From an archaeon (GTDB lineage Archaea; Iainarchaeota; Iainarchaeia; Iainarchaeales; 1-14-0-10-31-34): DNA of 32,000 bases. Location: the NCBI GenBank assembly GCA_024277355.1, contig JAJRVL010000009.1, positions 27,580-59,579 on the forward strand, read 5' to 3'. Position 1 is the stretch's first letter. Each line of letters begins with the position of its first letter. The position numbers and the translations under genes are program-made. Below, piece by piece: positions 11,356 through 27,145 of the stretch. The notes under the pieces are model-generated. The model saw nothing but the letters and a program-made list of their open reading frames with translations, searched no databases and had not been told where the DNA came from.

Positions 11356-11371
11356 AAAAACACCAATACTT

Positions 11372-11404: not shown

Positions 11405-11462
11405 GTTACTAAAAACAGTAACGTTGTCGTTTTGGCTGTTTAGTTTTTTTAAAATACAAAAA
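11405..11462. repeat. duplicated intergenic module, copy 2: palindrome plus a 47-nt perfect repeat
   Basis: Palindrome GTTACTAAAAACAGTAAC at 11405-11422. 11416-11462 is identical to 9977-10023. Confidence 0.85.
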
Positions 11463-11489
11463 CTTTTTTTGAATAATTTTTTTGAACTG

Positions 11490-11858: not shown

Positions 11859-12447
11859 TTAATCTCCTTCCTTTTATTATTTTTCCTTTTCTTAAAATGT
11901 TCTGGATAAACAAGTCTTTTTCAGTCCAGCGCAACTTAATTTCTTTTTTGTCCATGATTACAGGTGAAAACCTTATGCCTGTTTTAGTAGTTGCATTAAC
12001 AAATTCTTCAACAATTTTTTCTTCTAATTTACTGCTTTTTTTTTCTAAGCCGATTAAAATATCAAAGTCTGATTGATGCGAAAAATCTTTTCTGATGCGT
12101 GATCCAAAAGCAATCACTATCTTTATTTTAGAGTTTTTCAAGAGTTTCAAGGATTTAAGTGTTTTAAATAATGGTTTCTGGAAATCACTTGTTTTTTTAA
12201 AGATTTTTTTCAGTTCAGGAAGCAAATAAAATTTTTGGTTGATTTTGATTAATTTGTTTCTGCCTTGGTATTCAATTAACACTAATCCTGTTTTTTCCCA
12301 GTCTTTTATAATACCTGAAACAGTTGCTTTTGGTGTTCCTGTCATTCTCCCTAATTCTGAAATCGAAAAATGACCGGATTTATGTATGAACTTTTCCAGC
12401 ATTAAAATCTTTGACTTTGAATTCATTAATTGTTCCATTATCTGCAT
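11833..12447 (-). CDS. minimal nucleotidyltransferase (MNT) with an N-terminal winged-helix domain
   Basis: NTase signature AFGSRIRKDFSHQSDFDILI (GS-x9-11-DxD). N-terminal wHTH-like SISELGRMTGTPKATVSGIIKDWEKTGLV. The track start at 12525 is TTG; the ATG at 12447 (MQIMEQL) is more plausible, but the start is uncertain. Confidence 0.7.
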   Translation of the reverse strand: MQIMEQLMNSKSKILMLEKFIHKSGHFSISELGRMTGTPKATVSGIIKDWEKTGLVLIEYQGRNKLIKINQKFYLLPELKKIFKKTSDFQKPLFKTLKSLKLLKNSKIKIVIAFGSRIRKDFSHQSDFDILIGLEKKSSKLEEKIVEEFVNATTKTGIRFSPVIMDKKEIKLRWTEKDLFIQNILRKGKIIKGRRLIEHIQTTF

Positions 12448-12607
12448 TAAGACACCATTCAATAAACTGAACATATGTTCAGTATATAGAACATATTTTA
12501 AATGAATTGTCTTAATTTGCAGCAATCAGAATTTAATTTACTTTTGCTTTTCTTTAAATAAGTTTTTCTTAAATTAATATATTTAGAAAAGTTTAGCAGA
12601 TGAAATA

Positions 12608-13777
12608 ATGACTTTGTATTCTCATTCCAGAATTGAATCTTTTTTTCAGTGTCCTTTAAAATTTAAGTTTCAGTACATTGAAAAAATTAAAGTTCCTTTT
12701 CATCAAAGCATTGAAGCTTTTATGGGTTCAAGAGTGCATGAAACTTTTGAATATTTATATAAATTAGTTCAGCATACTAAAATTCCTTTACAGCAGGAAT
12801 TAATTGACTTTTATAAAAAAAAATGGAAACAAAACTGGAATAATAATATTGTTATTGTAAAACAAGGTTTAACTAAAGAAAATTATTTTAATTTAGGAAT
12901 TAAATGCATTAAAAATTATTATCAAAAAAATCATCCTTTTAATGATGGTTTAACTATTGGAATTGAAAAAAGAATTTTAATTGATTTAGATGGAACAGGT
13001 AAATATAAAGTTCAGGGTTTTATTGACCGTTTAGTTGAAAAAAAACCAGGTTTCTTTGAAATTCATGACTATAAAACTGTTTCTAATCTGCCTGACCAAA
13101 TAAAAGCAGAAGAAGACAGACAATTAGCTTTGTATGCTATTGGATTAGAACAAGAATTTAATGAAGTAAACGAAGTTGAATTAATCTGGCATTTTGTTGT
13201 TTTTGGAAAAACAGCTAAAAGCAAAAGAACTAAACAACAATTAACTGAATTAAAAAAAGAAACTATTTCCCGCATTAAAGAAATTGAATCCTGTAATAAA
13301 TTTAATTCAAATCCTTCTATTTTATGTAATTGGTGTAAATTTCAATGTATTTGCCCTGAATTTAAGCACCAAAAAGAAACAGAAAATCTTCCAGCAAACA
13401 AATATTTAAATGAAGCAGGAGTTGTTTTAGCAAACAAATTTATTGAATTAAAAAACAAGGAAACAGAAATTAAAACAGAATTGTCTTTAGTTAAAGAAGC
13501 TGTTATTGCTTTTGCAAAAGAAAAAAATTATTCAGTTATTAAAGGAAGCAACGGCAAACTTTCAATAACACAAACTAAATCCTTAAAATTACCAAAAAAA
13601 GACTCTAAGGAATATGAAAAACTTGAATTACTTTTACAAAAAATCAACGCCTTAAATGAAACAAGTTCTTTAGACCAAACAAAAATCAAAGAATTCTTAA
13701 AGAAAAAAGAAAACAAACAAATAGAAAAGCTTTTGGAGGAAAATGAAATGACGACGGTGAGGGTTGGGAAGAAGTAA
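12608..13777 (+). CDS. Cas4/RecB-like PD-(D/E)XK nuclease with a 4-Cys cluster and a Lys/Glu-rich C-terminal extension
   Basis: N-terminal Cys (FFQCPLKF), a nuclease core FIDRL...FEIHDYKT (D...E-x-K type) and a C-terminal CNWCKFQCICPE, which together give the Cas4/AddB Fe-S pattern C...CxxCxxxxxC. The last ~130 aa look like coiled coil. Confidence 0.7.
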   Translation: MTLYSHSRIESFFQCPLKFKFQYIEKIKVPFHQSIEAFMGSRVHETFEYLYKLVQHTKIPLQQELIDFYKKKWKQNWNNNIVIVKQGLTKENYFNLGIKCIKNYYQKNHPFNDGLTIGIEKRILIDLDGTGKYKVQGFIDRLVEKKPGFFEIHDYKTVSNLPDQIKAEEDRQLALYAIGLEQEFNEVNEVELIWHFVVFGKTAKSKRTKQQLTELKKETISRIKEIESCNKFNSNPSILCNWCKFQCICPEFKHQKETENLPANKYLNEAGVVLANKFIELKNKETEIKTELSLVKEAVIAFAKEKNYSVIKGSNGKLSITQTKSLKLPKKDSKEYEKLELLLQKINALNETSSLDQTKIKEFLKKKENKQIEKLLEENEMTTVRVGKK

Positions 13778-13880
13778 AGATAGTTTTATAAATTCCATAA
13801 TATTTGACCAAATACTGTTTAGAATTTATTTGCTACAATTAGAATATCGTTTGGATTTTCTTGAAATTTTTTTTAATGTA

Positions 13881-15851
13881 TTAGTTATTATTTTCTTCAA
13901 CATCATTAAATTTATTCAACAAATTTATTTTTTCAGAACCAATTTTTGTATTTTTTTCAATTAAATCAAGAATCTTTTCTGTTCTTTTTAATAAAAATCC
14001 TTCATAGTTTCTTTTGTTTACAAGAAGACTATACATTTCTTTATCAATTAAGTGAGTATTTAAAAATTCTTCAAAGTTTTTATTAGATTCGAATTCAGGG
14101 AAATATTCATCTGGGTTTTTTTTCTTTATTTCTTGATTTAATTCGCTACTAATAATTGCTATATTAGCAATATTATTTAATAAAAAATCGGCTTTTTCTT
14201 GACCTAATTCTTTTCTAAGGCTTTTTGCAGCATCTGAATTAAATGGGATTATGTGGTGTTTGTTATTTTTTGTATATGCTCCAAAATATTCCATTAAATT
14301 TATTTCAGAATTAACATTAAAATCTACAGGTTTTAAAGAATTTAATAACAAAATAAGAGAAGAATATAAATTATTTTGATTGTTGTATCCTGCATCAATT
14401 AAATATTTTTGATTGTATTCATAGTTTTTGTTAAATATTCCAAAATTTCTATTGTTTTTTATCTGTTCTACAAATGATTCTGATCCTTTATTAAATTCAT
14501 TCATGTCTGTTTCAATTCCTTGTAATTGGGCTCCTGGATATCTATTAAATATTAAAGTATTCCAAAACCATTTGTTAATTGATTCGAAGTAATTATTTTG
14601 ACTAAGTGCAGAATATTTGTTAGAACTTATTACATAAGTTAAAAAAGACAAAATTTTATTATCAGTGTATTTTACATCTAAAGATTTAATATTTAATTCA
14701 TTTGATAAATATTTCAATAATTGCTCAAAAAGTTTTCTAAATTCTAAAAGATTATCTTGAATATATTGTGAATTTAATTCATATATGTGATCTTTTTGAA
14801 GCCCGCTTTTTTTGAGATTATGTCTATTATGGATGATTGAAATTAATCTAAGAGTAGTTGTAGTATCAATATTATAATATGAATCGTTTTCGTAATTTAA
14901 AGAAATTTGAGGATCTAACTTTTCTGATTCTAAATAAGAGCGCCTGTAAAGAATCTTTTGGATTGCATTTTTTAGATTAAATGTTTTTTTATCATTTTTA
15001 TATATAATTGTTTTATATGTTTTTGCAACCATTATATCAAAAATATCAAGTTTTACATTTTGAGTATTTATTCTTTCAAAAATAGTTACTACTTTATCTA
15101 AATTGCTATCTTCAACAATTTGATGAATCTTATAAGACTTTATTATCTCTGTAAATTTTTCTAAGATTTTTTTATTTTCATCAAGAATTCTATTTTTTTT
15201 TTCAATAAAAATAATTGTATCTTCTTTATTTAAGTCTTCAGGAACTTCTTCAGTTATCTTTTTTCGTTCTTTTTCAATAATCTTATCTGGAAATTTATGT
15301 TTTTCATCAAATATTTGAGATAAATCTATAAATCTAAATGGATTAAGTTTATTTGTTTCTCTTAATTTTTTAATAGTTATTTTTTCGTTATTCATTTCAA
15401 TTTTCTGAGTTTCGCTAAGAAAAACATTTGTTTCAATATCGAAATAAATCTTGTAAGGTTTTGATTTTTTATTTTTAGAACGGTATAATTCTTTTCCTTT
15501 TAAAACACCATAAATTGTTGTCAACCTTTGTTGGCCATCTAAAATATAATATAATTCTTTTGAACTGTTATTATTTTCGCTTATTTCTTTATCTCCAACA
15601 TTCCGATAAGCTAAATTTTCTTTAGATTTCCATAACAATAAATTTCCAATAGTATATCCTTTGAAAATACTATCAAATAATAAAGTAAATTTTTCAATAT
15701 TCCAAACAAAATCTCTTTGAAATTCAGGAATAACCCAATGCCCTTCTTCAATTTTATTTAATATTTTTGAAATAGATATTGGAGGATAAAAGTCTTTATC
15801 TAGATTCTTTTCAATTCTACTGTGTTCTTGCATAATTTTTGATTTGTCCAT
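13881..15851 (-). CDS. GmrSD-like type IV restriction enzyme candidate (DUF262 N-terminal + DUF1524/His-Me-finger C-terminal)
   Basis: DUF262 motifs IPEFQRDFVW and YILDGQQRLTTI. C-terminal NNKHHIIPFNS...NNIANIAIISSELNQEI. The track ORF runs to 16028, but that extension overlaps the Zn-ribbon gene. The ATG at 15851 (MDKSKIMQEH) has GAGAGG upstream. Confidence 0.75.
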   Translation of the reverse strand: MDKSKIMQEHSRIEKNLDKDFYPPISISKILNKIEEGHWVIPEFQRDFVWNIEKFTLLFDSIFKGYTIGNLLLWKSKENLAYRNVGDKEISENNNSSKELYYILDGQQRLTTIYGVLKGKELYRSKNKKSKPYKIYFDIETNVFLSETQKIEMNNEKITIKKLRETNKLNPFRFIDLSQIFDEKHKFPDKIIEKERKKITEEVPEDLNKEDTIIFIEKKNRILDENKKILEKFTEIIKSYKIHQIVEDSNLDKVVTIFERINTQNVKLDIFDIMVAKTYKTIIYKNDKKTFNLKNAIQKILYRRSYLESEKLDPQISLNYENDSYYNIDTTTTLRLISIIHNRHNLKKSGLQKDHIYELNSQYIQDNLLEFRKLFEQLLKYLSNELNIKSLDVKYTDNKILSFLTYVISSNKYSALSQNNYFESINKWFWNTLIFNRYPGAQLQGIETDMNEFNKGSESFVEQIKNNRNFGIFNKNYEYNQKYLIDAGYNNQNNLYSSLILLLNSLKPVDFNVNSEINLMEYFGAYTKNNKHHIIPFNSDAAKSLRKELGQEKADFLLNNIANIAIISSELNQEIKKKNPDEYFPEFESNKNFEEFLNTHLIDKEMYSLLVNKRNYEGFLLKRTEKILDLIEKNTKIGSEKINLLNKFNDVEENNN

Positions 15852-15864
15852 TTTATAACGCCTC

Positions 15865-16092
15865 TCAATCCAAATCAGCTGGTTTGAATTTATATCCACA
15901 ATCTTTGCAAGTTCCTTCAACTTTTTCTTTTCTTCTGTCAGTTCTTGAACTAGAAATTCCAGTACTTCCCTGAACTCTATAAGTTTGAGATGATTCAGGA
16001 AACCATAAAACATCATTTTTTGTTCCACATTTTGGGCAATTTAAATCAATTTTCTCTGATTGCTGTCCTCTGGTAAATAATTCATAACTCAT
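15865..16092 (-). CDS. 75-aa zinc-ribbon miniprotein, function unknown
   Basis: CPKCG-x33-CKDCG gives four Cys in two knuckles. The stop is 13 nt before the GmrSD-like ATG, and the start is 22-31 nt after the upstream gene's stop. The track start at 16101 is GTG; an ATG lies at 16092. Confidence 0.55.
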   Translation of the reverse strand: MSYELFTRGQQSEKIDLNCPKCGTKNDVLWFPESSQTYRVQGSTGISSSRTDRRKEKVEGTCKDCGYKFKPADLD

Positions 16093-16123
16093 TTTACTCA
16101 CTTAAATAATATCTATAGAAAGT

Positions 16124-18307
16124 CTAAATAGTTTTTCGCAACTCCTGAGATGTGGGCTGAATGCCGTCAACAAGCTTGTCAAGCTTTTCCTTAATTAAAT
16201 AAAAATCAAAATAACCATTATTTACTCGCAAAGCATATTTGATAATTTTGTAGAATTTATTCCTGTTATTTTTCAATACATCTGGATTCGAACTTAAATA
16301 AGCAGTAAGTTTTAGTAAATTGATTCTATCTATACAAGACACCCATATTTTTGATTTAATTTTAAATGCTTTATTTTTAGTTTTTTTTAATTGTTCTGAA
16401 AGAGATTCTTTAGCTTTATCAAAATCATCTTTGTCAGTCTCATAGGTTAAAAAAACATAATATTTTAATCCGCCGTGCTTCTTTACTTTAAAATTTCTTT
16501 CAAAATTATTCATATATTTTATATCTTTAGATATTTCTGTAGGAAATTTTATTCTCATTTCCTTTTTTTCTTTTATGTAACTACTTAACTTTGTCTTGGT
16601 ATATCTTTTTGCATCCCATAAAACAAATTGTGTAGTTCCCTGCCCTTCAAATGCAAATGCCCCATCCGCAAGTTTTGGACCGCCAAGTTTTTGATTATGT
16701 GGAAACATAAAATTTAATATTGCATAAATACTGTTTTCAAATTCTTCGGGGGTAGGGGGACTGGGAGCTTTTACAATAGTTATGGCGGCTCTGAAAGATT
16801 CATACATTAGATCGGAACTTTTTTCTATTGCTTCTTGAATGAGTGAAATTATTTTATCACTTTTTTTTCCTGCAAGCCAATCAATAAATTGTAATCCTTC
16901 AACATTACTTAATCCAACCATGTTTGAATTGAGCTCTCCTTTTAATTTTATTATTATTAACGGAATTCCTAATAGTTTTAATTTTTCAAATTTTTCTTTT
17001 CCAATACTGTTCTTACTAAAATATAAATAGAAATATTTTCCTCCTTTTTCAATTCTAATTGCAAAATCGTTTTTGTTTAAATTAAGTGCTTTTGCCAAAT
17101 ATTTAGTTGTTTTTATTTTCTCTTTTTTTAGCAAATTAATTGTTTGAAATTCAATCTGTTTTTTATTTGGTTTAATAGAATAAGAAATAGTAAAAGATCT
17201 TCTGGCTGGGTTTCCACATTCACAAATTTTTTGCTTTATAGGTTTAATTACATCACAGGAAGGATTAGAACACCAATATAATTTATTCTGTTTTTTCCTT
17301 AGAAGTTTGACTTTTATCATTTCATTAAGTTTTGTGCCTACTTGAGGAAGATTAAAATAATATGGCTCAACATCTTGACGATAAATCACATTTGTTAATA
17401 TTTCATTAAAATCTAAATTGTCAAATATTATTTGCCCTTTATTAATTATATTCCTAAATTCTTTTGGCAAAGCATATCTTGAACCAAAATAAGTAATTTT
17501 TTTTCCTAATTTTGATTTATTAAACATTAATTTGGCTTGTCCAGAATTCCCAATAGACGTCTTTACTTGGTTTAAGGTATCTAAAGAAAAAGTAACAATG
17601 CCATCTTTTTCCCAATCTAAAGCTTGTTGCAAAGCATTTCCAGTCTTAGATTTAATTATTACTGACTCGCCAGAACCTGGAGCCTTTGTTCTTTTTAGAT
17701 CAATAAGGTAAAATTTTTGGTTTACTTTATTGAAAATATTCTTTATCTTCTCTTTATCTATTTTGATTGGTTCGTGTTTTGGCAACCATATAATATTTTT
17801 CACTTTTAGCCACCATAGAATCAATTCCTTTATTTTGTGGCTTATATTAAAAAATTCAACAATAATGTTTTCTTTATCAAAAACAATACAAAAAAAATTT
17901 TTACTCAAATTTTTATAACTTTTAATTGTTCTTGTAGTTAAACCAGTTCCAGGTTCCACGTATCCAATGATTACAATTATTTTTCTACCATGTTTTTTTG
18001 CATAAATGACGGCAAGTTCTCTTTTACTTTTAAATAATTTTTTATTATAACTCAAAACAATTCTTTTGAACAAATTTTTGATTTTCTTTTCTCCTGTAAG
18101 AATTTTATTACATTGAATAGTTTCAGTGCTATTCCCCTTAGAAATTTCTTTTAAACAATAAGCTGCAATAATGGTTTTTTGATTTATTTTTCCATCTTTT
18201 GAAATTAATTCTAGTTCTGTCTTATAATCTTCTTTAAATTGATCTAGATCATCACCATAAGTTCTCTGCAATCCGATATAAGAAAAGCTGTCAGTTAATT
18301 TCGCCAT
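16124..18307 (-). CDS. 727-aa multidomain protein: unknown N-terminal ~500 aa with an internal Zn ribbon, plus a C-terminal FokI-type PD-(D/E)XK cleavage domain
   Basis: C-terminal EFENSIYAILNFMFPHNQKLGGPKLADGAFAFEGQGTTQFVLWDAKRY aligns with the FokI cleavage domain as I recall it (ILEMKVMEFFMKVYGYRGKHLGGSRKPDGAIYTVGSPIDYGVIVDTKAY). The D-x16-D-x-K spacing is identical (D codons at 16664-16666 and 16613-16615). Zn ribbon CSNPSC-x11-CEC at about 17.21-17.28 kb. Confidence 0.65.
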   Translation of the reverse strand: MAKLTDSFSYIGLQRTYGDDLDQFKEDYKTELELISKDGKINQKTIIAAYCLKEISKGNSTETIQCNKILTGEKKIKNLFKRIVLSYNKKLFKSKRELAVIYAKKHGRKIIVIIGYVEPGTGLTTRTIKSYKNLSKNFFCIVFDKENIIVEFFNISHKIKELILWWLKVKNIIWLPKHEPIKIDKEKIKNIFNKVNQKFYLIDLKRTKAPGSGESVIIKSKTGNALQQALDWEKDGIVTFSLDTLNQVKTSIGNSGQAKLMFNKSKLGKKITYFGSRYALPKEFRNIINKGQIIFDNLDFNEILTNVIYRQDVEPYYFNLPQVGTKLNEMIKVKLLRKKQNKLYWCSNPSCDVIKPIKQKICECGNPARRSFTISYSIKPNKKQIEFQTINLLKKEKIKTTKYLAKALNLNKNDFAIRIEKGGKYFYLYFSKNSIGKEKFEKLKLLGIPLIIIKLKGELNSNMVGLSNVEGLQFIDWLAGKKSDKIISLIQEAIEKSSDLMYESFRAAITIVKAPSPPTPEEFENSIYAILNFMFPHNQKLGGPKLADGAFAFEGQGTTQFVLWDAKRYTKTKLSSYIKEKKEMRIKFPTEISKDIKYMNNFERNFKVKKHGGLKYYVFLTYETDKDDFDKAKESLSEQLKKTKNKAFKIKSKIWVSCIDRINLLKLTAYLSSNPDVLKNNRNKFYKIIKYALRVNNGYFDFYLIKEKLDKLVDGIQPTSQELRKTI

Positions 18308-18352
18308 TATTATCGCACACCATAAATTCTTTATTAAAACAAATAAATAAGT

Positions 18353-19495
18353 TCAATTGACAAATCCTCCTTTAAACGCTTTCTGCATCAAACAATCAAA
18401 TAAAATATTAATTTCTTCTGTTGATTGGCTTTGTTTGTATTTTAAAGTCATAAGAGAATCAAAAAACAATGAAAATTTTTTTTGTAAATCCAAAGGAGGA
18501 GTTACAATCTCAAGGTTCCTTAAAATTGTAAGATTAAGCCCGCTCCTAAAACCATCTCCTGTAATATTTCTTAGTTCGTTATATCTTGTTTTTAAATTGA
18601 CGTGCAAATATTCAGAAGTAATTTTAGAATAATCTGGAGAAATGGATGCAACGGACTGATTACTTGTGGTGTTCACTTTTAGAATTCCTGTAGTGCCCCT
18701 TGTTTTTCCTTGCCCATTTAATGCAATTACCACATCTCCTATTTTATACAATTTAGCATTAGAATTCTTTAAACCTAATTTTGTAATTTTATTAGGAACA
18801 TTAATTATGTAATCTGATTTAATATTTCCTGATTTCATCCAATTTATTGTTCCTTTTTCAAAATATTCTATAAATTTCTTATTAGGGGTTCCCCCCATAT
18901 CAAGTTTAGCAATATCTTTTAATTTTAGTTTAGGCCATTGTTTCTCATTTTTAGCAGGCCCTCCAAATATTTCATGAAAGACATTTTTTAAAATTTTATT
19001 TGTTTCTTCATTTACTTGATTTCTTTTTTCTTTCAGCTTTTCAGCTTGTTCAAGAATAGAAACAATTTGTTTTTGAATGGGCATTGGAGGAACAATTAAT
19101 TTTTTTCTTTTTAGAAACCGATAATGTCTACTATACCCTCCAGATTCAAGAGGCAAATATTTTAGTTGATAATACATAAATTTAGCGTTCAATAAATCCT
19201 TTTTAGGGAGTAAAACTTTAGTGCCATCAGCTCCAACACAGAAGCTGAAATCAGCATATTTAATTCTTTTAGTATGGTCTCCAAATATTACTACAGGATT
19301 GCCATAAGGATATAATTTACTTTTATCATCACAATACCCTGCAATCTGTTTTTCCCCTTGATCTATTATTGGAAATTTTCCTTTTTCTTTAAATTCTGAC
19401 TTTTTGATTTTTATAGCAGATGGAACGCTATCAGTCTCTAAGCAATCTTTGAATTCTTTTTCTTCCCATTTTTTTGACAATTTTTGATTATTCAT
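18353..19495 (-). CDS. hsdS: type I restriction-modification specificity subunit HsdS
   Basis: Two target-recognition halves are separated by a conserved helical spacer (QKQIVSILEQAEKLKEKRNQVNEETNKILKNVFHEIFG), with a matching C-terminal helix (LQKKFSLFFDSL...LFDCLMQKAFKG). The ATG at 19495 (MNNQKLSKKWEEKEF) has GGAGA 6 nt upstream; the track start at 19540 is less likely. Confidence 0.85.
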   Translation of the reverse strand: MNNQKLSKKWEEKEFKDCLETDSVPSAIKIKKSEFKEKGKFPIIDQGEKQIAGYCDDKSKLYPYGNPVVIFGDHTKRIKYADFSFCVGADGTKVLLPKKDLLNAKFMYYQLKYLPLESGGYSRHYRFLKRKKLIVPPMPIQKQIVSILEQAEKLKEKRNQVNEETNKILKNVFHEIFGGPAKNEKQWPKLKLKDIAKLDMGGTPNKKFIEYFEKGTINWMKSGNIKSDYIINVPNKITKLGLKNSNAKLYKIGDVVIALNGQGKTRGTTGILKVNTTSNQSVASISPDYSKITSEYLHVNLKTRYNELRNITGDGFRSGLNLTILRNLEIVTPPLDLQKKFSLFFDSLMTLKYKQSQSTEEINILFDCLMQKAFKGGFVN

Positions 19496-19976
19496 TATTA
19501 TTCTCCTTAAAGTTTTTTTTCTCATATTCCAGAATTGCATCTATTGTGAAAGGCATAGTAGTAGTTCTTTTCCCATATTTAGGGGAAACTGATTCTCTAT
19601 TTATTTGCTGTTGAAATCCAACTATTTGTGACTTGAATAGTTGAGCTTCTTCAAAAGGAAGATTTTTGTCTACAAATTTTTTTAAGTATTCAATGCCCTT
19701 TTCAATTTTCTCTTTTTGACTAAGTTCTTTTCCAATATTTTTTGTTTCTTCTTTCTCACAGTAATGTATATGGAACTGTTTGTGAAGAGAGTGTTCTTTT
19801 GGGTGTTTACTCTCTTCTAGTCTAATAATTGGTTTGTGATTTCTATTTTCCTGAAGTTCATCAAGAAGAATAACAAAATCCTCTTCTCCAGAATTGCTTT
19901 TTTCTATGTTAAATCGTAACTGATATTTTTTAGTAGAGGTGTTTATTACAAATTCTCTTTTATTTTTATTAATCAT
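19488..19976 (-). CDS. hypothetical 162-aa protein embedded between hsdM and hsdS
   Basis: ORF with no motif I recognise (Lys/Glu/His-rich, HKQFHIHYCEKEE). Its last codons overlap the hsdS start (ATGAATAA at 19488-19495). Confidence 0.55.
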   Translation of the reverse strand: MINKNKREFVINTSTKKYQLRFNIEKSNSGEEDFVILLDELQENRNHKPIIRLEESKHPKEHSLHKQFHIHYCEKEETKNIGKELSQKEKIEKGIEYLKKFVDKNLPFEEAQLFKSQIVGFQQQINRESVSPKYGKRTTTMPFTIDAILEYEKKNFKENNNE

Positions 19977-20005
19977 TTTATTATTCCCTTAAATTCTTGA
20001 AAATT

Positions 20006-20665
20006 TCATTTTTGTTCCACGCCTATAAGTTTAATATATATTTCGTTAATGTTGTAATTATCTTTTTTTTGTAATTTAAAAGATATTTGATATGGCCTAA
20101 AATTATCTCCACTAAAAAGTAAATTTAACTCATATTTTCCAGGCAATAATGTTTCAGGTATCCCTATAGGAATTGAATGGTACTTTTCAAAGTGAATTTT
20201 TTTATCCGTATTAACAGCTACTGCCACATCAATGAATTCTTGCTCTCCAATACCAATTGATAGCCTTTCCGCGTTTCGTTGATCAAGTATTAACTCTGGT
20301 CTACTGGCCCACTTTAATGGAAAGCCTTCGTAATCATTTAATACTTCACTTTCCTTAACAATGTTAAATATTTGACATCTACAGTTGATTGCAGGGTTTT
20401 TTCCATTATTTTTAACTTTCATTCTTAGAAATGTTCCTAATGGTTTTATCTCGTTAACAACTGAAGCACTCTTAAGTTTTAAATTTCCAATGGCAATATT
20501 TTCTTTTCTAAATGGAACTTTTTCTTTATACTCGAATTCAAGTTTCGGTTTTTTCCAGAATGGAAGTATAAAATCTTTCAAAAGGGCAATTAATATTGCA
20601 ACAAATGAGATTATTATTGCCCAGATTTCTATTTGAATACCAACTATTAATATTTTTTCAGCCAT
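20006..20665 (-). CDS. hypothetical 219-aa single-pass membrane protein embedded between hsdM and hsdS
   Basis: N-terminal TM helix ILIVGIQIEIWAIIISFVAILIALL followed by a ~185-aa soluble domain with no recognisable motif. The ATG at 20665 directly abuts the hsdM stop TAG (20666-20668). Confidence 0.6.
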   Translation of the reverse strand: MAEKILIVGIQIEIWAIIISFVAILIALLKDFILPFWKKPKLEFEYKEKVPFRKENIAIGNLKLKSASVVNEIKPLGTFLRMKVKNNGKNPAINCRCQIFNIVKESEVLNDYEGFPLKWASRPELILDQRNAERLSIGIGEQEFIDVAVAVNTDKKIHFEKYHSIPIGIPETLLPGKYELNLLFSGDNFRPYQISFKLQKKDNYNINEIYIKLIGVEQK

Positions 20666-22156
20666 CTAAACAAGCCTCTTCAATTCTTCTAATTGATTAG
20701 TTATCTCTTTTTCAAGCTTCAATACTTTTTCAATTATTTTTTTTGGTGGTTCGTATTTTATTTCTTCAAATTTAATTTCTTGATAGCGTGAAATGCTTAG
20801 ATTGTATTCATTTTCTTTTATTTTTTTGAATGGAACTTTAATACTGTTTTCTGAAACTTCTTTTGACTTAAATTTTTTTGTTATGTCTGGAATGTCTCCT
20901 TTCCCATCCTTAAATTGTCTTTTATCGTCTAAACTAAAACCATCATCTTTCATTTCATAAAACCAAACGGAATCTGTTTGGCCTCCTTTAATAAAAATTA
21001 GAACTGCTGTTCCTACTCCAGAATAAGGTTTGAATACCCCTGAAGGCATTGAAATAACTGCTTCTAACTGGCATTTTTCTAATAAAAGTTTTCTGGCTGA
21101 CTTGTGTGCATTACTGCTTCCAAACAACACTCCATTTGGAACAATTATAGCTGCTCTTCCCCCTTGTTCAAGCAAATTATAAAACAATTCAATAAACAAT
21201 AATTCTGTTTTAGTAGTTCCTACTTTGAATATATCATTAATGTCGCTTTTGTCAATTGAACCAGTAAAAGGAGGATTAGCTAACACTACATCAAATTTTT
21301 TGCTTAAATCAAAATTTTTGGATAAAGAGTCAGCGTATTTAATGTTTGGGTTTTCAATTCCATGCAAAATCATATTCATTAAAGCAATTCTAACCATTGT
21401 AGTGTCAACATCAAAACCAAAAAAAGTATTCCGCTTTAAAAAACTCCAAGCTTTCTTGTTAGTGCCAATTTTATCTCCAATCAAATTATGAGGAGTTCCA
21501 TCTTCATCATATTTAATTGAATCCTTTGAAGTATTTTTTTCTAAAATATGATAATAACAATTTATTAGAAAACCAGAAGTTCCACATGCAGGATCGCAAA
21601 CAGTTTCTCCAATTTTAGGATTAACTAACTCAACCATCATTCTAATAATATGTCTTGGAGTTCTAAACTGTCCGTTTTTTCCAGAAGTTTGAATTTCTTT
21701 CAATAAGTATTCATAAATGTCTCCTAAAGTGTCTCCATTAGCAGTTAAAGCAGAATCATATAATTCATCAATAATGCTGACTGCTTCCTGCAACAAAGAA
21801 GGTTTTGGAATAATAAAAACAGCATCCTTCATGTTTTCAGAAAAAAGAGTGTCTCCTCCTCTCCTAATATTTTTAATGAAAGGAAAAACTTTATCTCTTA
21901 CGTGTTGAATCATTTGCTCTGAACTATAATGCTTCCAATTACTCCAAAGGCAATCTTCATTTCCTTCAAACACTGACTCAAATTTTTCTTTCCTTGCAAT
22001 AGCTTGATTTTTGTGCATTTCATCCAAGTCTTCTAATCTCTTCATGAAAATTAAATAAGAAATTTGTTCAATAGCAGTCAAAGGGTTAGCTATTCCTCCA
22101 GCCCAAAATTTATCCCATAACTGGCTAATTTTAGATTTAAGTTCAGCGTTTAACAT
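20666..22156 (-). CDS. hsdM: type I restriction-modification N6-adenine DNA methyltransferase HsdM
   Basis: SAM motif VCDPACGTSGFL and catalytic motif VLANPPFTGS, with an HsdM-type N-terminal helical domain. GGAGGC lies 8 nt upstream of the ATG. Confidence 0.9.
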   Translation of the reverse strand: MLNAELKSKISQLWDKFWAGGIANPLTAIEQISYLIFMKRLEDLDEMHKNQAIARKEKFESVFEGNEDCLWSNWKHYSSEQMIQHVRDKVFPFIKNIRRGGDTLFSENMKDAVFIIPKPSLLQEAVSIIDELYDSALTANGDTLGDIYEYLLKEIQTSGKNGQFRTPRHIIRMMVELVNPKIGETVCDPACGTSGFLINCYYHILEKNTSKDSIKYDEDGTPHNLIGDKIGTNKKAWSFLKRNTFFGFDVDTTMVRIALMNMILHGIENPNIKYADSLSKNFDLSKKFDVVLANPPFTGSIDKSDINDIFKVGTTKTELLFIELFYNLLEQGGRAAIIVPNGVLFGSSNAHKSARKLLLEKCQLEAVISMPSGVFKPYSGVGTAVLIFIKGGQTDSVWFYEMKDDGFSLDDKRQFKDGKGDIPDITKKFKSKEVSENSIKVPFKKIKENEYNLSISRYQEIKFEEIKYEPPKKIIEKVLKLEKEITNQLEELKRLV

Positions 22157-22539
22157 TATTTTTTGCCTCCTTTAATTTTCTTTATATTAGTAGGAACAAG
22201 AACAGAGTCTTTTCTTGTTTTTTTAATGTAAGAATTTCTTGTATTCAAAACAGAATTCATTTGACTTAAAAGGTTTTCAAGAAACAAAGGAGTTAACTTT
22301 TCTCCTACACTAATTTTTTCTCCGTCATCAAACTCAACACTCCAAGAAAAACAATCATTATTTTTGTCGTAAACAAATTTATTTACTCCAGCTTTATTTA
22401 ATGGAATTAATTTAGAAACATTGCTTTCAATTAAATTTTTAATAAAAAGAGAAGTAGTTATTTTTTCTTTTTCACAGTAATGCTTTAATTGAGAAAAAGT
22501 TAAGCGATCAATTTTAGAGCTAACAGTTATGTAATCCAT
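22156..22539 (-). CDS. 127-aa protein with an N-terminal ribbon-helix-helix (CopG-like) fold; candidate regulator of the hsdM block
   Basis: ITVSSKIDRLTFSQLKHYCEKEKITTSLFIKNLIES fits a strand-helix-helix pattern. The stop overlaps the hsdM ATG (TAATG). The C-terminal ~80 aa are unknown. Confidence 0.5.
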   Translation of the reverse strand: MDYITVSSKIDRLTFSQLKHYCEKEKITTSLFIKNLIESNVSKLIPLNKAGVNKFVYDKNNDCFSWSVEFDDGEKISVGEKLTPLFLENLLSQMNSVLNTRNSYIKKTRKDSVLVPTNIKKIKGGKK

Positions 22540-22560
22540 GAAAGAACTTTATAAAAAACA

Positions 22561-22595
22561 ATTTATAAATGAAACCTGTCTATTCAGGTATACCT
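22561..22595 (-). promoter_or_regulatory. candidate promoter/operator: TATA-like ATTTATAAAT plus nested palindromes ACCTG-N6-CAGGT / AGGTATACCT
   Basis: ATTTATAAAT (22561-22570) is centred about 26 nt upstream of the RHH ATG (22539), consistent with a leaderless mRNA. ACCTG (22574-22578) / CAGGT (22585-22589) and the perfect 10-bp palindrome AGGTATACCT (22586-22595) lie just upstream. Confidence 0.4.
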
Positions 22596-22596
22596 C

Positions 22597-25410
22597 TTAT
22601 TTGCTTTTTGTAGTTTCTTTTTCCAAACCATTGCATAAAGCCACAATTTCTTTTAATTCAGAATCATTAAACAATGGCTTTGGAGCCTTTCCAATATTAG
22701 TAAAAGGTTCAGCAAACAAATCAGAATACTCAATATGATCCTTTTTAGCAAAAACCGTTTGAAGAGTTCGCATAAACAACAATTTATTTGAATTCAATTC
22801 AATCTGCTTTTCAACCATAAACTTCCTAAAAGCTTCAGCAACCATTTTTTCAGAATCAGGAAACTCATACAACCCCAAAACATTCTTAATGAATTCAACT
22901 AAAGCACCATTACTTTGACGATAAGCTTTCTGCAAAACTTCTTCAGTAATATACAATTCAGGGCTATTAAGGATTTCCTCAAGCTTAACCAAATCTTTTT
23001 CATCTAATACTTCATTTTTTTTAATTTTCTTAATTGTAGGGTGAGTTTCAGCTAACTCTTTAATTCTCTTTTCAACTAAATCCTTATACTCTTTAACATA
23101 AATTTCTTTTCCTTCAGGACCAAACTCAATTTTTTCTCTTGATTCAGCTTCAACAACATCATCCATGTCAATAACAATTGGTTCTCTTGGATTCTTTCTC
23201 TTTAACTTCATTAATTCAGCAAACGCTTCTTGTAACTTAAAAGCATCAGAAACAGAAACCTTCTCCCAAAAATCTTTTCTTTTAGCTTTATTCAAAAAAG
23301 TTTCTTTATCTTTTACTTTCTTTAAAGTAACAGGCAAACACTGCAAATCAAAACCAATTCTCTCCTGCAATCTTTCCAATTTCTTTTTATCTTTCTCTAA
23401 AACAGCTAACTTTAATTGCTCTGTCTTCAAAATAAAAGAATAAACATCATAATTAACATCAGTCTTAAACTTCATCAAAGGAGAAATTTTCTTCATTAAA
23501 AAATCAAAATGTTTTAATCCAACCTGACTCCAAAAATCTTTATGCAAAGCTTTCTCTATGTTTTCAGTATGCTCTCTAATAGAAATAGAATCCATCGGCA
23601 AAGATTTAATTTCTTTATAAATTTCACTCCTAACTATTTCAACTTCTTCCTTCATTCCGTTCTTTTCAAATAACTCCAACAAATTCAGCTTTAACTTAAA
23701 TATTTTAACTGGCAAAGCCTCACTTGCCTTTGATTCCCTTCCTTCAGGTTCAACTTTAAACCGCTTAAAATTACCCCAAAAATCCAAAATCTTAAAATAC
23801 TCTTTATTCATTTGCTTACATAAAACATTATCGCTACCACAATCAGGAGAACACTTTCTTGTACCACGACCAATCATCTGCCAAAACCTAATCTTAGAAA
23901 AAATTGGTTTAGCAAAAACAAGATTTTGAATAGGCTCAACATCCACGCCAGTAGAAAGCATATCAACAGTAATGGCAATTCTAGGCCACTTCTCATACTC
24001 AAATTCTTTCAATAATTCATCTCTTCTTTCAATCTGATAATCAATAATTTGAGCTAACTTCCCTTTATACTGGGGATAAAGTTTATTGAAAGCCTCCCAA
24101 ATTCTTTTAGCATGAACATGAGTTAAAGCAAAAACAATAGTCTTGCCAGGCAAAGTTCCAGTTTCATCATATTCAGCTTCAGCCATAAACTCTCTAACTA
24201 AAGCTTCATTAGTGCCAACAGGGGCAACCTCTTTTTCAATCTTTGAACCATCCCAATTTAAATCATCCAAAGTCAAACCTTCTTCTAACAAACGCTTTCT
24301 TTCACTTGCAGGAATATCTTCAGAAGTAATACCTTTAACTTGAAAATGAGTTTGAGCATTATAAACTTCAAATGGAATCAAATGTCCTTCTTCAACTGCT
24401 GGCCAATATTCATACAAAAAAGTTGGAACACCAAACTCACACTCAAAAAACCTAAAAGTATCTCTATCAACTAAATCAGCAGGAGTAGCTGTTAAGCCAA
24501 CTTGAATAGAATCAAAATAAGTGAAAATTTCCTTAAACTTATTAAAAATACTTCTATGGGATTCATCAGAAATAATTAAATCAAAATAACCAGGAGAAAT
24601 ACTTTGATAACAAGAAATCAAAGTCTGCAAAGTAGAAACATATAATCGAGCAGACTTATCAATTTCTCCAGAGAAAATAGTTGAGCGAGATTCCTCAGGC
24701 AAAAACTTCTTGAAACCTTTATTTAAAGCTTGATCCCTTAAAGCCCTTCTATCAGTCAAAAACAAAACCTTCTTAATCCAATGAGCCTTCAAAAGAACAT
24801 CAATCAAAGCCACAGAAGTTCGAGTTTTACCAGTGCCAGTGGCCATAACTAACAAAAACTTTTTTTTACCTTGTTCCAATCCTTCAAGAATTCTTTTAAC
24901 TGCTTCAATCTGATAAGGCCTATCAATAATATCTTGCCTAATCTCCATTACAGACAATGGTTTCTTATTTTCATTCAAAAACCTAACTTTCTCTAAATCA
25001 TCTTGAGAATAAAAACCCCTAATCTGCTTTGGAACGCCATCAACTTTATTCCAAAACCAAATTTCAACCCCGTTAGTTAAAAAAATAAAAACAGGTTTTC
25101 TAGTTTGCTTTTCAATGTCATCAGCATAATCTTGAGCTTGTTTTTGACCAACAATAGGATCTCTAGAAAATTTTTTGGCTTCAATAACTGCAAGTGGATT
25201 ATTTTGTTTATCTAAAAGAAGATAATCTGCAAATTGACTTTCTTCTTTATTATTCCAAGTATCTTTATTGATTTTATAATCTTGAACTTTAAAATTAGAT
25301 TGTTTAGTATCAACTTCTTCAATAATCATTGAATTATCAAATTTCCAACCTTGTTCTTTAAGAGCTACATCAATTTTTTCCTTTCTAGTTCTAAACTCGT
25401 TTAAATCCAT
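22597..25410 (-). CDS. hsdR: type I restriction enzyme R subunit HsdR (nuclease + SF2 helicase/translocase)
   Basis: N-terminal PD-(D/E)XK ADYLLLDKQNNPLAVIEAKK. Helicase motif I LVMATGTGKTRT, motif II IISDESHRS, motif III GLTATP, motif VI QMIGRGTR. Long helical C-terminal region. Confidence 0.9.
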   Translation of the reverse strand: MDLNEFRTRKEKIDVALKEQGWKFDNSMIIEEVDTKQSNFKVQDYKINKDTWNNKEESQFADYLLLDKQNNPLAVIEAKKFSRDPIVGQKQAQDYADDIEKQTRKPVFIFLTNGVEIWFWNKVDGVPKQIRGFYSQDDLEKVRFLNENKKPLSVMEIRQDIIDRPYQIEAVKRILEGLEQGKKKFLLVMATGTGKTRTSVALIDVLLKAHWIKKVLFLTDRRALRDQALNKGFKKFLPEESRSTIFSGEIDKSARLYVSTLQTLISCYQSISPGYFDLIISDESHRSIFNKFKEIFTYFDSIQVGLTATPADLVDRDTFRFFECEFGVPTFLYEYWPAVEEGHLIPFEVYNAQTHFQVKGITSEDIPASERKRLLEEGLTLDDLNWDGSKIEKEVAPVGTNEALVREFMAEAEYDETGTLPGKTIVFALTHVHAKRIWEAFNKLYPQYKGKLAQIIDYQIERRDELLKEFEYEKWPRIAITVDMLSTGVDVEPIQNLVFAKPIFSKIRFWQMIGRGTRKCSPDCGSDNVLCKQMNKEYFKILDFWGNFKRFKVEPEGRESKASEALPVKIFKLKLNLLELFEKNGMKEEVEIVRSEIYKEIKSLPMDSISIREHTENIEKALHKDFWSQVGLKHFDFLMKKISPLMKFKTDVNYDVYSFILKTEQLKLAVLEKDKKKLERLQERIGFDLQCLPVTLKKVKDKETFLNKAKRKDFWEKVSVSDAFKLQEAFAELMKLKRKNPREPIVIDMDDVVEAESREKIEFGPEGKEIYVKEYKDLVEKRIKELAETHPTIKKIKKNEVLDEKDLVKLEEILNSPELYITEEVLQKAYRQSNGALVEFIKNVLGLYEFPDSEKMVAEAFRKFMVEKQIELNSNKLLFMRTLQTVFAKKDHIEYSDLFAEPFTNIGKAPKPLFNDSELKEIVALCNGLEKETTKSK

Positions 25411-25497
25411 GCTTTATTTTATGTTAAAACCATTATTTTATTGTTTTGCATACAAAAAATGTATATAGTTTAATGCTTAAACAAATAAAAAATAGTT

Positions 25498-25893
25498 ATG
25501 GATTACCTGAAGAGAAAAAATATTCCTGCAAAAATACAACTTGAAGTTTGGAATAGAGATAACTGGCATTGCCGTTACTGTGACAAACCAATTTTTTATA
25601 CTCTTTCATTAAAAATTCTTGATAAAATAAATCCAAAACATTCTTACTTTCATCCAAACGGTAAAACTGGAGAAATACTGCCTTTATTTATTTATTCTTG
25701 GGCAAGTGTTGACCATGTTAAACCATTCTCAAAACAAGGATCTGACGAAAAAGAGAACTATGTTTCTGCCTGTTGGGAATGCAATATGAAATATGGAAAC
25801 ATGGAAGTTGGACAAGGAAAGCCAGAACCAAAAGGAATAATTGAGAGTAATTGGGATGGGTTTTATGGATTGTATTTTAAATTGAAAAAATAA
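25498..25893 (+). CDS. HNH endonuclease-domain protein (131 aa)
   Basis: CRYCDKPI ... DHVKPFSKQGSDEKENYVSACWECNMKYGN, matching the CxxC...DH..P...N...CxxCN HNH pattern. Confidence 0.75.
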   Translation: MDYLKRKNIPAKIQLEVWNRDNWHCRYCDKPIFYTLSLKILDKINPKHSYFHPNGKTGEILPLFIYSWASVDHVKPFSKQGSDEKENYVSACWECNMKYGNMEVGQGKPEPKGIIESNWDGFYGLYFKLKK

Positions 25894-25925
25894 ATTTATT
25901 GATAATAAAGAAATCTTAAAATATG

Positions 25926-27140
25926 CTAAAAAACATTTTTGAAAATCTTAATATTCTCTCTATTTTTCAATATGATTTTTATTAAAGTTTTCATTTCTAA
26001 CCTTGTTTTTTCCTCTTTTTCTTCATAATGCAAAAACAATCTCTGAGTTTCTTTTTTATTAAAAGGATTGATTTGAGTTTTAGTTTTGCATAAAACCTCT
26101 TTTTTGTTGTATGCGATTATTCTATTGCCTATGATTTCGTCTTTAACATAATATATGGGAATTTCTTTCTTATTTAATTCCAACACAAACATGTTTTTTT
26201 CATTACTCCAATTTACTAAATAATCTTTAGCTCTTTCTATTATTCCATTTTTTACAACGTTTGATGTTAAAATTACTATGTTTTCTTCATTTGCCTCTGT
26301 CTTTAGAAGCCTTTTTAAGTAGTCTAAAAAATCTTTTGCTTTCATTTTGTTTTTATAATCAGATGCTTTGATGTCTTTAATTATGCTTTGAGTCAAATAT
26401 TCTATTTCTCCTCTTGCAATAAAGAACCCATCACTATCTAAACCAACAAGAGTTGGTTCAGAAGGGTCAAAAAATTCAGCATCTATCTTAATTGCTTTTC
26501 CAATTTGCGTGAATTCGCCGTCTGTTTCTTTAACTAAAGAATGAGTGGTTATTTTTGGCAAAATTTCAGATTCTTTAAATCTATAGTTTATAGCTCTAAG
26601 ATTTTTTTCTATGACTAATTCTCTTTTCAAGCTCTTTGACTCTATATCTATATAATTTATTCCTAAATCTGTAATAGTGTAAGTATTTTGAAACATATTT
26701 TTTGAAATGTATCCTTGTCTTCTAAGTTTATCAATCGTTGGCATAATATCTACCTTCTTAATTTTCAAGTTTGGAAATAATTTTTTTAAATCTAGTTGGA
26801 AACCAGTTAATCCTTTACTATTTCTTAAAAATATTTTTAATATTTCTAATTCTACCTCTTTTAGTTCACTTCCTTCTGACTCAACATTCCAACCCATTTT
26901 TTCTTCAATTGCAGTAAGCTTGGAATTCAAATATAGAAACACTATAATCTCTATGAAAAAAATAATCTCAATAATGATTGGAATTTTTTCTTTAAATGTA
27001 GGATCTTCATTGTTTGGGACATAACCAAAGTAATACCCTACTAAAGATAGAATAATGGCGGATAATAATCCAATTGCAAGTTGTAAGATTGAAATAAATC
27101 TTTTATGTCTTAGTTCTCCTGCTTTAATTTTAGTTTCCAT
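25926..27140 (-). CDS. membrane-anchored protein with a winged-helix-like domain and an unknown C-terminal domain
   Basis: Two N-terminal TM helices (FISILQLAIGLLSAIILSLVGYYFG; IPIIIEIIFFIEIIVFLYL). wHTH-like ILKIFLRNSKGLTGFQL...IDKLRRQGYISKN...YTITDLG. The track start at 27149 is TTG; the ATG at 27140 lies 5 nt after the upstream miniprotein's stop. Confidence 0.55.
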   Translation of the reverse strand: METKIKAGELRHKRFISILQLAIGLLSAIILSLVGYYFGYVPNNEDPTFKEKIPIIIEIIFFIEIIVFLYLNSKLTAIEEKMGWNVESEGSELKEVELEILKIFLRNSKGLTGFQLDLKKLFPNLKIKKVDIMPTIDKLRRQGYISKNMFQNTYTITDLGINYIDIESKSLKRELVIEKNLRAINYRFKESEILPKITTHSLVKETDGEFTQIGKAIKIDAEFFDPSEPTLVGLDSDGFFIARGEIEYLTQSIIKDIKASDYKNKMKAKDFLDYLKRLLKTEANEENIVILTSNVVKNGIIERAKDYLVNWSNEKNMFVLELNKKEIPIYYVKDEIIGNRIIAYNKKEVLCKTKTQINPFNKKETQRLFLHYEEKEEKTRLEMKTLIKIILKNRENIKIFKNVF

Positions 27141-27145
27141 ATTTC

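Follow-up and report, generated by a model that had tools for sequence, protein, structure and literature searches.

A tightly packed nine-gene restriction block in a small archaeon is probably a layered mosaic of independent defence modules

Does a run of closely packed restriction genes, all read in one direction, encode a single machine, or several defences that have come to lie side by side? The question is raised by a block of nine minus-strand genes in the 1.13-Mb genome of a groundwater archaeon (11 contigs, ~27% G+C; GenBank assembly GCA_024277355.1). The block occupies positions 13881-25410 of a 32,000-nucleotide stretch of contig JAJRVL010000009.1 (27,580 to 59,579 of the forward strand), to which we refer as the window. 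It comprises the three genes of a type I restriction-modification (R-M) system (hsdR, hsdM and hsdS), genes for proteins of 127, 219 and 162 residues (p127, p219 and p162), a 727-residue protein with a FokI-type nuclease domain (p727), a zinc (Zn)-ribbon miniprotein and a GmrSD/BrxU-type, type IV-like enzyme. An earlier inspection of the DNA letters (the sequence-only reading) had left two interpretations standing, either a defence operon built in layers or one composite system. In our judgement the block is probably a layered mosaic defence island of independent modules in a small DPANN-type archaeon, and not a nine-part machine.

The evidence that carries this view is the company that each gene keeps elsewhere. 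We compared 80 loci with the closest hsdM relatives and 7 more type I loci of the same order, together with the contexts of 13 p727-family genes, 5 p219 genes, 1 p162 gene, 7 Zn-ribbon genes and 5 GmrSD genes. None of the 80 closest-hsdM loci carries p219, p162, p727 or the Zn ribbon; two of them show a weak DUF262 match only, several kb off. The 7 further type I loci keep only hsdR-p127-hsdM/S of the block. A second locus with all nine genes was not found among the type I, p727, GmrSD and Zn-ribbon contexts compared, and recurrence of the set in unrelated genomes, as would mark a fixed multi-gene system of the BREX or DISARM kind, was likewise absent from these loci. The only conserved subset is hsdR-p127-hsdM/S and, more loosely, a type I operon followed by a p727-family gene (3/13). 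Since the parts travel separately across the contexts compared, the composite half of the earlier alternative finds no support and fails the co-occurrence check proposed in the sequence-only reading itself, and the layered half, that of independent co-directional modules, stands.

The architecture itself was described correctly. Recomputation of the open reading frames (ORFs) returned all nine minus-strand genes at the coordinates claimed for them, and the eight junctions were identical: 57 nt between hsdR and p127; a TAATG overlap of the p127 stop with the hsdM start; 0 nt where the p219 ATG abuts the hsdM stop; 29 nt between p219 and p162; an 8-nt overlap of the p162 3' end with the hsdS start; then 45 nt, 22 or 31 nt, and 13 nt. 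This agreement assumes the earlier choice of start codons, namely ATG 19495 for hsdS, GTG 16101 or ATG 16092 for the Zn ribbon and ATG 15851 for the GmrSD-like gene. The hsdS start is the third in-frame ATG, and the longest ORF would begin at 19540. The GmrSD-like ATG is preceded by GAGG, and the mechanical ORF runs on to GTG 16028. On its upstream side the block is flanked by a divergent HNH gene (25498-25893, plus strand), and on its downstream side by a convergent gene for a Cas4-like PD-(D/E)XK nuclease (12608-13777, plus strand). The calls of type I, FokI-type and GmrSD-like modules were also upheld, as set out below.

The identity of the type I core is unambiguous: hsdR, hsdM and hsdS form a complete R-M system, all three subunits scoring far over the Pfam and PADLOC cut-offs. 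HsdR (22597-25410, minus strand; 937 aa) combines an HSDR_N nuclease region with SF2 helicase motifs and ends in an EcoEI_R_C tail (Pfam: ResIII 1.6e-39, EcoEI_R_C 8.9e-21, HSDR_N 1.2e-7; PADLOC: REase_I 4e-137). Against the NCBIfam EcoAI/FtnUII family it reached 275 bits, under the cut-off of 550, and the EcoEI_R_C domain was found; among the subunit-exchange families IA-IE, the EcoAI/EcoEI type IB is thus no more than a candidate. HsdM (20666-22156, minus strand; 496 aa) is a type I N6-adenine methyltransferase (N6_Mtase 1.6e-67, HsdM_N 3.3e-16; PADLOC MTase_I 2e-171), with nearest relatives at 70% identity in a Woesearchaeota metagenome-assembled genome (MAG) and at 69% in a Nanoarchaeota MAG; these relatives mark the host as a DPANN-type archaeon. 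HsdS (18353-19495, minus strand; 380 aa from ATG 19495) is the specificity subunit with two target-recognition domains; Methylase_S (6e-29) matches in 2 stretches, and PADLOC Specificity_I (1.6e-79) matches from residue 17 of the long ORF. One relative deserves separate mention. In the complete genome G037 (locus L122, 1971-4489, plus strand), the hsdR orthologue is broken into overlapping ORFs of 384 and 455 aa, probably a frameshifted and inactive restriction subunit, with p127, hsdM and hsdS intact beside it.

Between hsdR and hsdM lies p127 (22156-22539, minus strand; 127 aa), a small conserved protein associated with type I systems. Homologues with 22-47% identity were found directly after hsdR in loci L002, L004, L113, L122, L123, L125, L126 and L127. 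Nine loci hold p127 homologues. In L002, in L004 and in 7 of the 8 close type I loci of the order, p127 comes immediately behind hsdR, and it is still next after hsdR where the gene order is R-p127-S-x-M. On the contig of the p727 homologue P0002, a 133-aa gene occupies the p127 position. No match to p127 was obtained in Pfam, PADLOC, NCBIfam or PHROG, and its Atlas matches were to archaeal hypothetical clusters only. A profile of 9 homologues gave weak matches to the ribbon-helix-helix (RHH) proteins DinJ (E value 0.047), SvtR (0.46) and AvtR (0.57) across residues 4-44. The earlier RHH label thus draws some weak support from profile matches that agree with one another, and none from Pfam. 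We regard p127 as probably DNA-binding and of RHH type, its C-terminal part forming a domain without a recognised fold.

The sequence-only reading had cautioned that AT-rich gaps within the block could hold internal promoters. The hsdR-p127 spacer (22540-22596, minus strand; 57 nt) is a candidate for an internal promoter with an operator. It contains a T6 run, the palindrome AGGTATACCT and the inverted repeat ACCTG-N6-CAGGT, together with the TATA-like element TTTATAAAT centred ~26 nt before the p127 ATG. By inspection, TATA-like boxes after inverted repeats occur at the same place in L002, L004, L113, L125, L126 and L127; the repeats differ in sequence between loci, and their arms measure, for example, 11 nt in L004 and 9 nt in L002. 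Neither hsdR nor p127 has a Shine-Dalgarno (SD) motif, and each has an A/T-rich TATA-like element centred ~26 nt before its ATG. GGAGG/GAGG-type motifs precede hsdM, p219, p162, hsdS and the GmrSD-like gene. The gene for p727 is preceded by both GGTG and TTTAATAAAG; the latter is the AT-rich element noted earlier before ATG 18307, and we confirmed its presence, centred ~26 nt upstream. Counting TATA-like motifs is uninformative here because the DNA has 27% G+C.

The combination of a TATA-like box and inverted repeats before p127 with SD motifs at internal genes only suggests at least two transcription units, one of hsdR and one running from p127 through hsdS. Such a two-promoter layout is known for EcoKI (PMC12707154, section 20), and the arrangement also recalls the island under RptR control (PMC12255303). 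Transcription of the whole block as one operon appears doubtful from these signals. A look through sequencing runs listed no RNA run, and one DNA run contained 6% of the sampled words.

Two genes, p219 (20006-20665, minus strand; 219 aa) and p162 (19488-19976, minus strand; 162 aa), are embedded as cargo between hsdM and hsdS. Neither matched any family in Pfam, PADLOC, NCBIfam or PHROGs, and searches against PDB sequences were also empty. The p219 protein has a single N-terminal transmembrane helix (Kyte-Doolittle maximum of 2.6 near residue 16) followed by a domain of ~185 aa without a recognised fold. It has 16 homologues at 37-67% identity; the two with NCBI names are archaeal MAG proteins, one of them from Nanoarchaeota. 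In none of five contexts (L103-L107) do p219 relatives lie inside a type I operon. They adjoin an MmeI-like enzyme with HNH and integrase genes or an EcoO109I R-M pair, or follow a MoxR-type ATPase. The p162 protein is charged and has one homologue among 5.8 billion proteins (P0040, 52% identity). That homologue is carried outside any type I operon (0/1) on a contig (L108) resembling a mobile genetic element (MGE), with genes for ParB_N, an N4/N6 methyltransferase and Cas4-like and HNH proteins.

The position that these two genes occupy is a variable cargo slot whose contents differ between relatives. In the two closest type I relatives, it is filled with other candidate effectors: a 579-aa Mrr_cat-TPR fusion in L002 (2417-4156, plus strand) and, in L004 (11482-13773, plus strand), a 445-aa Schlafen/AlbA_2-HATPase_c_4-winged helix-turn-helix protein followed by ORFs of 94 and 212 aa. 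The slot holds a 226-aa ORF in L124 and a 446-aa ORF in L125, and is empty in L003, L005 and L122. The L124 ORF was considered as a p219 homologue, and comparison showed the two to be unrelated.

At the downstream end of the block, the GmrSD/BrxU-type enzyme (13881-15851, minus strand; 656 aa) matched Pfam GmrSD_N (PF03235) at 4.5e-29, with 102 bits against a cut-off of 33.2. A match to the DUF262 protein in PDB entry 7p9k, which we take to be BrxU, covers residues 27-274 only (E value 4.6e-11). The N-terminal DUF262 motifs EFQR43 and DGQQR105 are present, and the C-terminus has a His-Me-finger-like HHIIP532 followed by the Asn-rich NNIANIAIISSELN at ~558-571. In PADLOC the enzyme matched HEC-05 over its full length (9e-27) and PDC-M55C (2e-34); HEC-05 is of BrxU type (bioRxiv 10.1101/2024.01.29.577857). 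Relatives occur in 5 of the 195 other genomes of the order, and no Zn-ribbon ORF, p727 or type I gene was found in the flanks of these 5 loci.

Immediately upstream lies the gene for the Zn-ribbon miniprotein (15865-16092/16101, minus strand; 75-78 aa), whose two CxxC knuckles read CPKC (residue 22) and CKDC (residue 65). Homologues with up to 78% identity were found in 13 of the 195 other genomes of the order, two of which hold several copies, and this conservation identifies the ORF as a real conserved gene. DNA similarity between its loci is limited to the ORF; the neighbours differ, and none is a GmrSD. The miniprotein was tried as a conserved partner of the p727 or GmrSD relatives and rejected on comparison of their neighbourhoods. 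We note that, between different families of the order, its sequence has been kept much more closely than those of the genes around it, and that homologues lie near restriction genes in several of loci L131-L137. In L131 the miniprotein gene comes after hsdS and a 331-aa ORF, and in L135 it lies beside a divergent methylase gene. The 331-aa ORFs found after hsdS in both L131 and L122 proved not to be homologues on comparison. In L134 and L135, the miniprotein gene overlaps the stop codon of an ORF of 128 aa, which by eye resembles PUA/EVE proteins but had no Pfam match.

The largest accessory protein, p727 (16124-18307, minus strand; 727 aa), is predicted to be a multi-domain nuclease. No match was obtained in Pfam, PADLOC, NCBIfam, PHROGs or PDB sequences with either the protein or its profile, and FokI_cleav_dom (PF09254) matched neither p727 nor any of 16 family members at E values up to 1. 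A word-index homology search returned p727 itself only, and an exhaustive HMMER search was required to recover relatives. Among 1.8 billion proteins it found only 21 representatives, which makes the family a rare one. Residues D548, G549, W564, D565, A566, K567 and Y569 are invariant in a 16-sequence alignment, and the use of this alignment raised the predicted local distance difference test score of the AlphaFold2 model from 33 (single sequence) to 82.4.

The model shows, in order, tandem alpha/beta domains resembling TBP (TATA-binding protein), RdgC and RnlA-NRD (~58-290), a Cys4 Zn ribbon (C346, C351, C362 and C364), a D3-like domain with a long linker helix and a C-terminal FokI-type PD-(D/E)XK cleavage domain (~506-702; D548, D565 and K567). 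Residues 506-702 superimpose on FokI 405-579 with Z 12.3 and a root-mean-square deviation of 3.0 A over 153 residues (VIA-align), and residues 438-715 match Nt.BspD6I with Z 12.2. The D-x16-D-x-K spacing is presumably that of FokI D450/D467/K469. Foldseek searches with the model returned FokI (E value ~1e-4) and RdgC (6e-5). Residues 1-290 matched TBP, RnlA-NRD, RdgC and CENP-N-like folds (Z 5.5-7.5), and FokI D1/D2 was not matched. The earlier FokI-like call is thus right for the catalytic domain by fold, though the relationship is undetectable with hidden Markov models.

Taken in order, we picture the block as follows. In the first layer, the autonomous HsdR, HsdM and HsdS proteins would cut DNA lacking their own N6-methyladenine mark, with p127 as the conserved fourth gene in this lineage and a probable RHH repressor acting at a promoter-operator in the hsdR-p127 spacer. 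The hsdR gene would form one transcription unit and p127-hsdM-p219-p162-hsdS a second, translationally coupled one. In the second layer, membrane-anchored p219 and p162 would be hitch-hiking candidate defence genes, co-expressed with the methylation and specificity subunits. The third layer would consist of two stand-alone nucleases encoded behind hsdS. Of these, p727 is predicted to contact DNA by way of its TBP/RdgC-like domains and its Zn ribbon and to cut with its FokI-type domain, a reaction that by analogy with FokI probably needs dimerisation. Because most of its relatives have no adjacent methyltransferase, p727 most likely attacks modified or otherwise non-self DNA (type IV-like or self-limiting) rather than serving as a type IIS R-M enzyme. 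The GmrSD/BrxU-type enzyme would cut DNA with modified cytosine that escapes type I restriction, and we infer that restriction of unmodified and of modified DNA would be complementary in this way. What the data show are the gene identities, the fold, the catalytic residues and the pattern of co-occurrence; promoter structure and substrates, like this complementarity, are our reading of them. The Zn-ribbon miniprotein before it would be independently mobile.

Several observations weigh against this layered model. A p727-family gene stands behind hsdS in three loci that represent two unrelated type I subfamilies, and in 3 of the 6 contexts for which 3 kb or more of upstream DNA could be inspected. 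Which DNA p727 and the GmrSD-like enzyme prefer to cut is a prediction, and Pfam DUF1524 did not match the C-terminus of the latter at an E value of 0.01. The RHH assignment of p127 rests on E values of 0.05-0.6. Finally, the spacing of 13-57 nt and the SD-like motifs before p727 and the GmrSD-like gene are compatible with read-through from a type I promoter.

The first of these points leaves room for functional coupling, since recurrence of the hsdS-p727 arrangement exceeds the expectation from simple island packing. The type I system and p727 might form a functional pair, with the other genes independent. In such a pair, p727 could be a latent back-up nuclease freed when a virus inhibits the type I enzyme, following the logic of PrrC in EcoprrI, or it could be a recruited auxiliary cutter. 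A family member lies directly behind hsdS in 3 of the 13 contexts. In the window it follows after 45 nt. The P0002 contig, whose family member is 43% identical to p727, repeats the order hsdR-small ORF-hsdM-ORF-hsdS seen in the window. In L092 the gap after hsdS is 4 nt, and the type I subunits are 22-29% identical to those of the window and belong to a distant subfamily. A profile comparison of alignment A1 with the L092 protein was not counted, as the protein is very probably row P0013 of that alignment. A stand-alone cleavage domain situated 2.4 kb from hsdR in L125 would also fit a pairing, and PrrC offers a precedent (PMC3874165; PMC12707154).

Against such a pair, nine other family members have no type I genes in the visible DNA, of which at least L086, L089 and L129 show 5-10 kb upstream, and ~88 related type I loci lack a p727 relative. 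PrrC is almost exclusively embedded in type I R-M loci (Payne et al., bioRxiv 10.1101/2024.01.29.577857), whereas p727 is not and is located after the operon instead of within it. We give the pairing a low probability, which the recurrence behind hsdS keeps alive. A bolder form of the idea holds that the p727 family, with its TBP/RdgC-like DNA sensor, Zn ribbon and FokI-type cutter, is a new class of defence nuclease wired to type I R-M in small archaea, either as a guard triggered by a block of the type I enzyme or as a second cutter that the type I complex would target, with p127 an archaeal RHH repressor co-regulating the set; this we consider unlikely.

The remaining p727-family contexts are neighbourhoods of defence or MGE type, some on short contigs. 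Neighbours include a KAP NTPase with MmeI-like, Mrr and integrase genes; a C5 methylase with a protein-primed polymerase; Fic with an integrase; a D5 primase; and NYN with DUF6602. Some relatives have tightly coupled partner genes of their own. In L084, a 435-aa ORF with no known family (3485-4792, plus strand) overlaps the stop of P0003 by 4 nt, and in L085 a 200-aa double-Zn-ribbon protein with a nuclease-like C-terminus (1264-1866, plus strand) is encoded just upstream of P0005. A partial 392-aa ORF upstream of P0004 in L082, which by eye resembled a helicase/nuclease, had no Pfam or PDB support and was not counted. The stand-alone FokI-type domain of L125 (13524-14081, minus strand; 185 aa) is 51% identical to p727 546-725. 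Its start overlaps the end of a gene for a CCA-adding enzyme by 8 nt, and a CARF-like HFX_2341_N protein is encoded between it and hsdR. The 459-aa ORF upstream was considered as the N-terminus of a split p727, and was identified as that CCA-adding enzyme.

It is improbable that p727 is a conventional type IIS-like enzyme protected by a methyltransferase encoded elsewhere, here the type I M2S complex. The FokI-type cleavage domain, with a D3-like and linker arrangement like that of FokI and Nt.BspD6I, would suit such an enzyme; a C5 methylase gene precedes the L089 relative by ~1.3 kb in the same orientation, and three relatives adjoin type I methylases. However, the N-terminal 400 residues are unlike FokI D1/D2 and show TBP, RdgC and RnlA-NRD folds instead, several relatives have no methylase in the visible 1-10 kb, and methylation of a bipartite type I site is unlikely to protect the target of a separate recognition module. 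With an N-terminus of this kind, and with most relatives devoid of a neighbouring methylase, p727 was rejected as a FokI-family type IIS enzyme.

Least probable is a single composite machine of all nine proteins sensing both unmodified and modified DNA: nine co-directional genes with gaps of at most 57 nt and four overlaps or abutments, flanked upstream by a single divergent promoter region and downstream by a convergent gene, would agree with it, but the gene set was not refound in the 80 + 7 type I, 13 p727, 5 GmrSD and 7 Zn-ribbon loci, every part occurs alone elsewhere, autonomous action is known both for type I and for GmrSD/BrxU enzymes (PMC12707154, section 34), and an internal promoter is likely before p127.

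The layered mosaic also sits within a larger variable region. The nine genes form part of an island of ~19.7 kb (8596-28188) that adjoins a tRNA-Glu gene (28261-28336). By Pfam, the island contains two AAA_14/DUF4143 ATPases, a HEPN-MNT pair, the Cas4-like nuclease, the nine-gene block and the HNH gene, along with ORFs of 407, 59 and 146 aa without known family. The two ATPase genes are diverged and lie with the pair, HEPN and a MarR-nucleotidyltransferase (MNT), upstream of the Cas4-like gene (8596-12525, minus strand). Neither hsdM, p727, GmrSD nor the Zn ribbon was found in the 8 other genomes of the family. In the same-genus genome G003, a homologue of the 175-aa ORF at 8018-8545 and the tRNA-Glu/UbiA flank lie on one contig with only an EamA transporter gene between them, the island as a whole being absent; the comparison favours a species-specific island. 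The far end of the island showed no att-like repeat derived from tRNA-Glu, and the island contained no integrase, so that a simple integrated element is not demonstrated. One gene further left in G003, a histidine-biosynthesis operon and a [FeFe]-hydrogenase-like gene are inserted (L156, G003:C2:38500-56600); a histidine operon seems unusual in so small an archaeal genome.

Homologues of the genes that flank the block occur together elsewhere. In L108 (7526-9208), homologues of the HNH (72% identity) and Cas4-like (39-50%) proteins are encoded adjacently and divergently, and in L124 a Cas4-like homologue lies behind hsdS on the same strand. Since L108 carries both the HNH and Cas4-like pair and the only p162 homologue, these three appear to share a virus- or plasmid-like gene pool, as the pattern of homology suggests.

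How does the block compare with systems already described? In the immigration control region of E. coli, a type I system is linked with McrBC and Mrr (PMC3874165), and in some strains GmrSD homologues sit beside hsdSMR there (PMC3874165; PMC4437046, section 17, Fig. 8). Foreign DNA is thereby attacked whether it is unmodified or modified. Like that region, the block is a variable, horizontally acquired locus that combines type I R-M with modification-dependent (type IV) nucleases. It differs in being archaeal, on one strand and with very short gaps, in having a FokI-type protein of an unnamed family in place of McrBC or Mrr, and in an operon that has an RHH-like gene and cargo within it.

Embedded genes are common in type I R-M systems, GmrSD-like genes often being among them, and over Hma, BREX, DISARM and type I R-M together 96.7% of embedded genes point the same way as the system around them (bioRxiv 10.1101/2024.01.29.577857). 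In keeping with this 'guilt-by-embedding' (Payne et al. 2024), p219 and p162 lie between hsdM and hsdS in the same orientation and are translationally coupled, and the GmrSD of the window is among the proteins with HEC-05 and PDC-M55C matches. The block departs from the pattern in that p219, p162 and p727 match no PADLOC model, and in that the GmrSD-like gene and p727 follow the operon. Like PrrC at the EcoprrI type IC locus, p727 is an accessory nuclease gene physically linked to a type I operon. PrrC, however, is a tRNA nuclease of ABC-ATPase type that is nearly always embedded, whereas p727 is of the PD-(D/E)XK DNA-nuclease type and is mostly found away from type I genes. Embedding as close to obligatory as that of PrrC was seen for none of the three proteins in the contexts compared (p727 3/13, behind the operon; p219 0/5; p162 0/1).

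For p127, the nearest parallel is RptR, a small protein that represses a type I R-M island of enteropathogenic E. coli in which DarTG2 is embedded (PMC12255303). Like RptR and the C proteins of type II systems, p127 is small, tightly associated with R-M and placed behind a promoter-like palindromic region. RptR is the first gene of its island, whereas p127 has its place between hsdR and hsdM, carries an additional C-terminal domain, is archaeal and appears RHH-like; the term ribbon-helix-helix does not occur in the text of the RptR paper (PMC12255303). As to the nucleases, the C-terminal ~200-300 residues of modelled p727 share the fold and the D-x16-D-x-K spacing of FokI and Nt.BspD6I, and the predicted arrangement of D3-like domain and linker helix is like that of Nt.BspD6I. 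Unlike FokI, p727 has a TBP/RdgC-like and Zn-ribbon N-terminus and no dedicated methyltransferase partner. The GmrSD/BrxU-type enzyme shares with its namesakes the DGQQR motif of DUF262 and a long linker, and near its C-terminus it has an (H)HxxP...N motif that resembles a His-Me finger. It is highly diverged from them, and the Zn-ribbon miniprotein that precedes its gene is not so placed in the other relatives examined.

The complementary restriction logic and the embedding of genes have thus been described before, in the immigration control region, BREX/BrxU, PrrC and guilt-by-embedding (PMC3874165, PMC4437046, PMC12707154, bioRxiv 10.1101/2024.01.29.577857). The block is not a new kind of system, because type I R-M with type IV-like nucleases and cargo is already documented in bacteria. 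What is new are certain of its elements: the FokI-type p727 family, which is the most notable, the RHH-like p127 and the highly conserved Zn-ribbon miniprotein. The value of the locus lies in these testable parts from a poorly studied lineage. The p219 and p162 genes become defence candidates under guilt-by-embedding, and the Zn-ribbon miniprotein represents a strikingly conserved mobile gene that associates with restriction genes. The p127 protein may be an archaeal counterpart of the bacterial repressors of R-M islands, and the p727 family could yield a new modification-dependent or programmable cutter.

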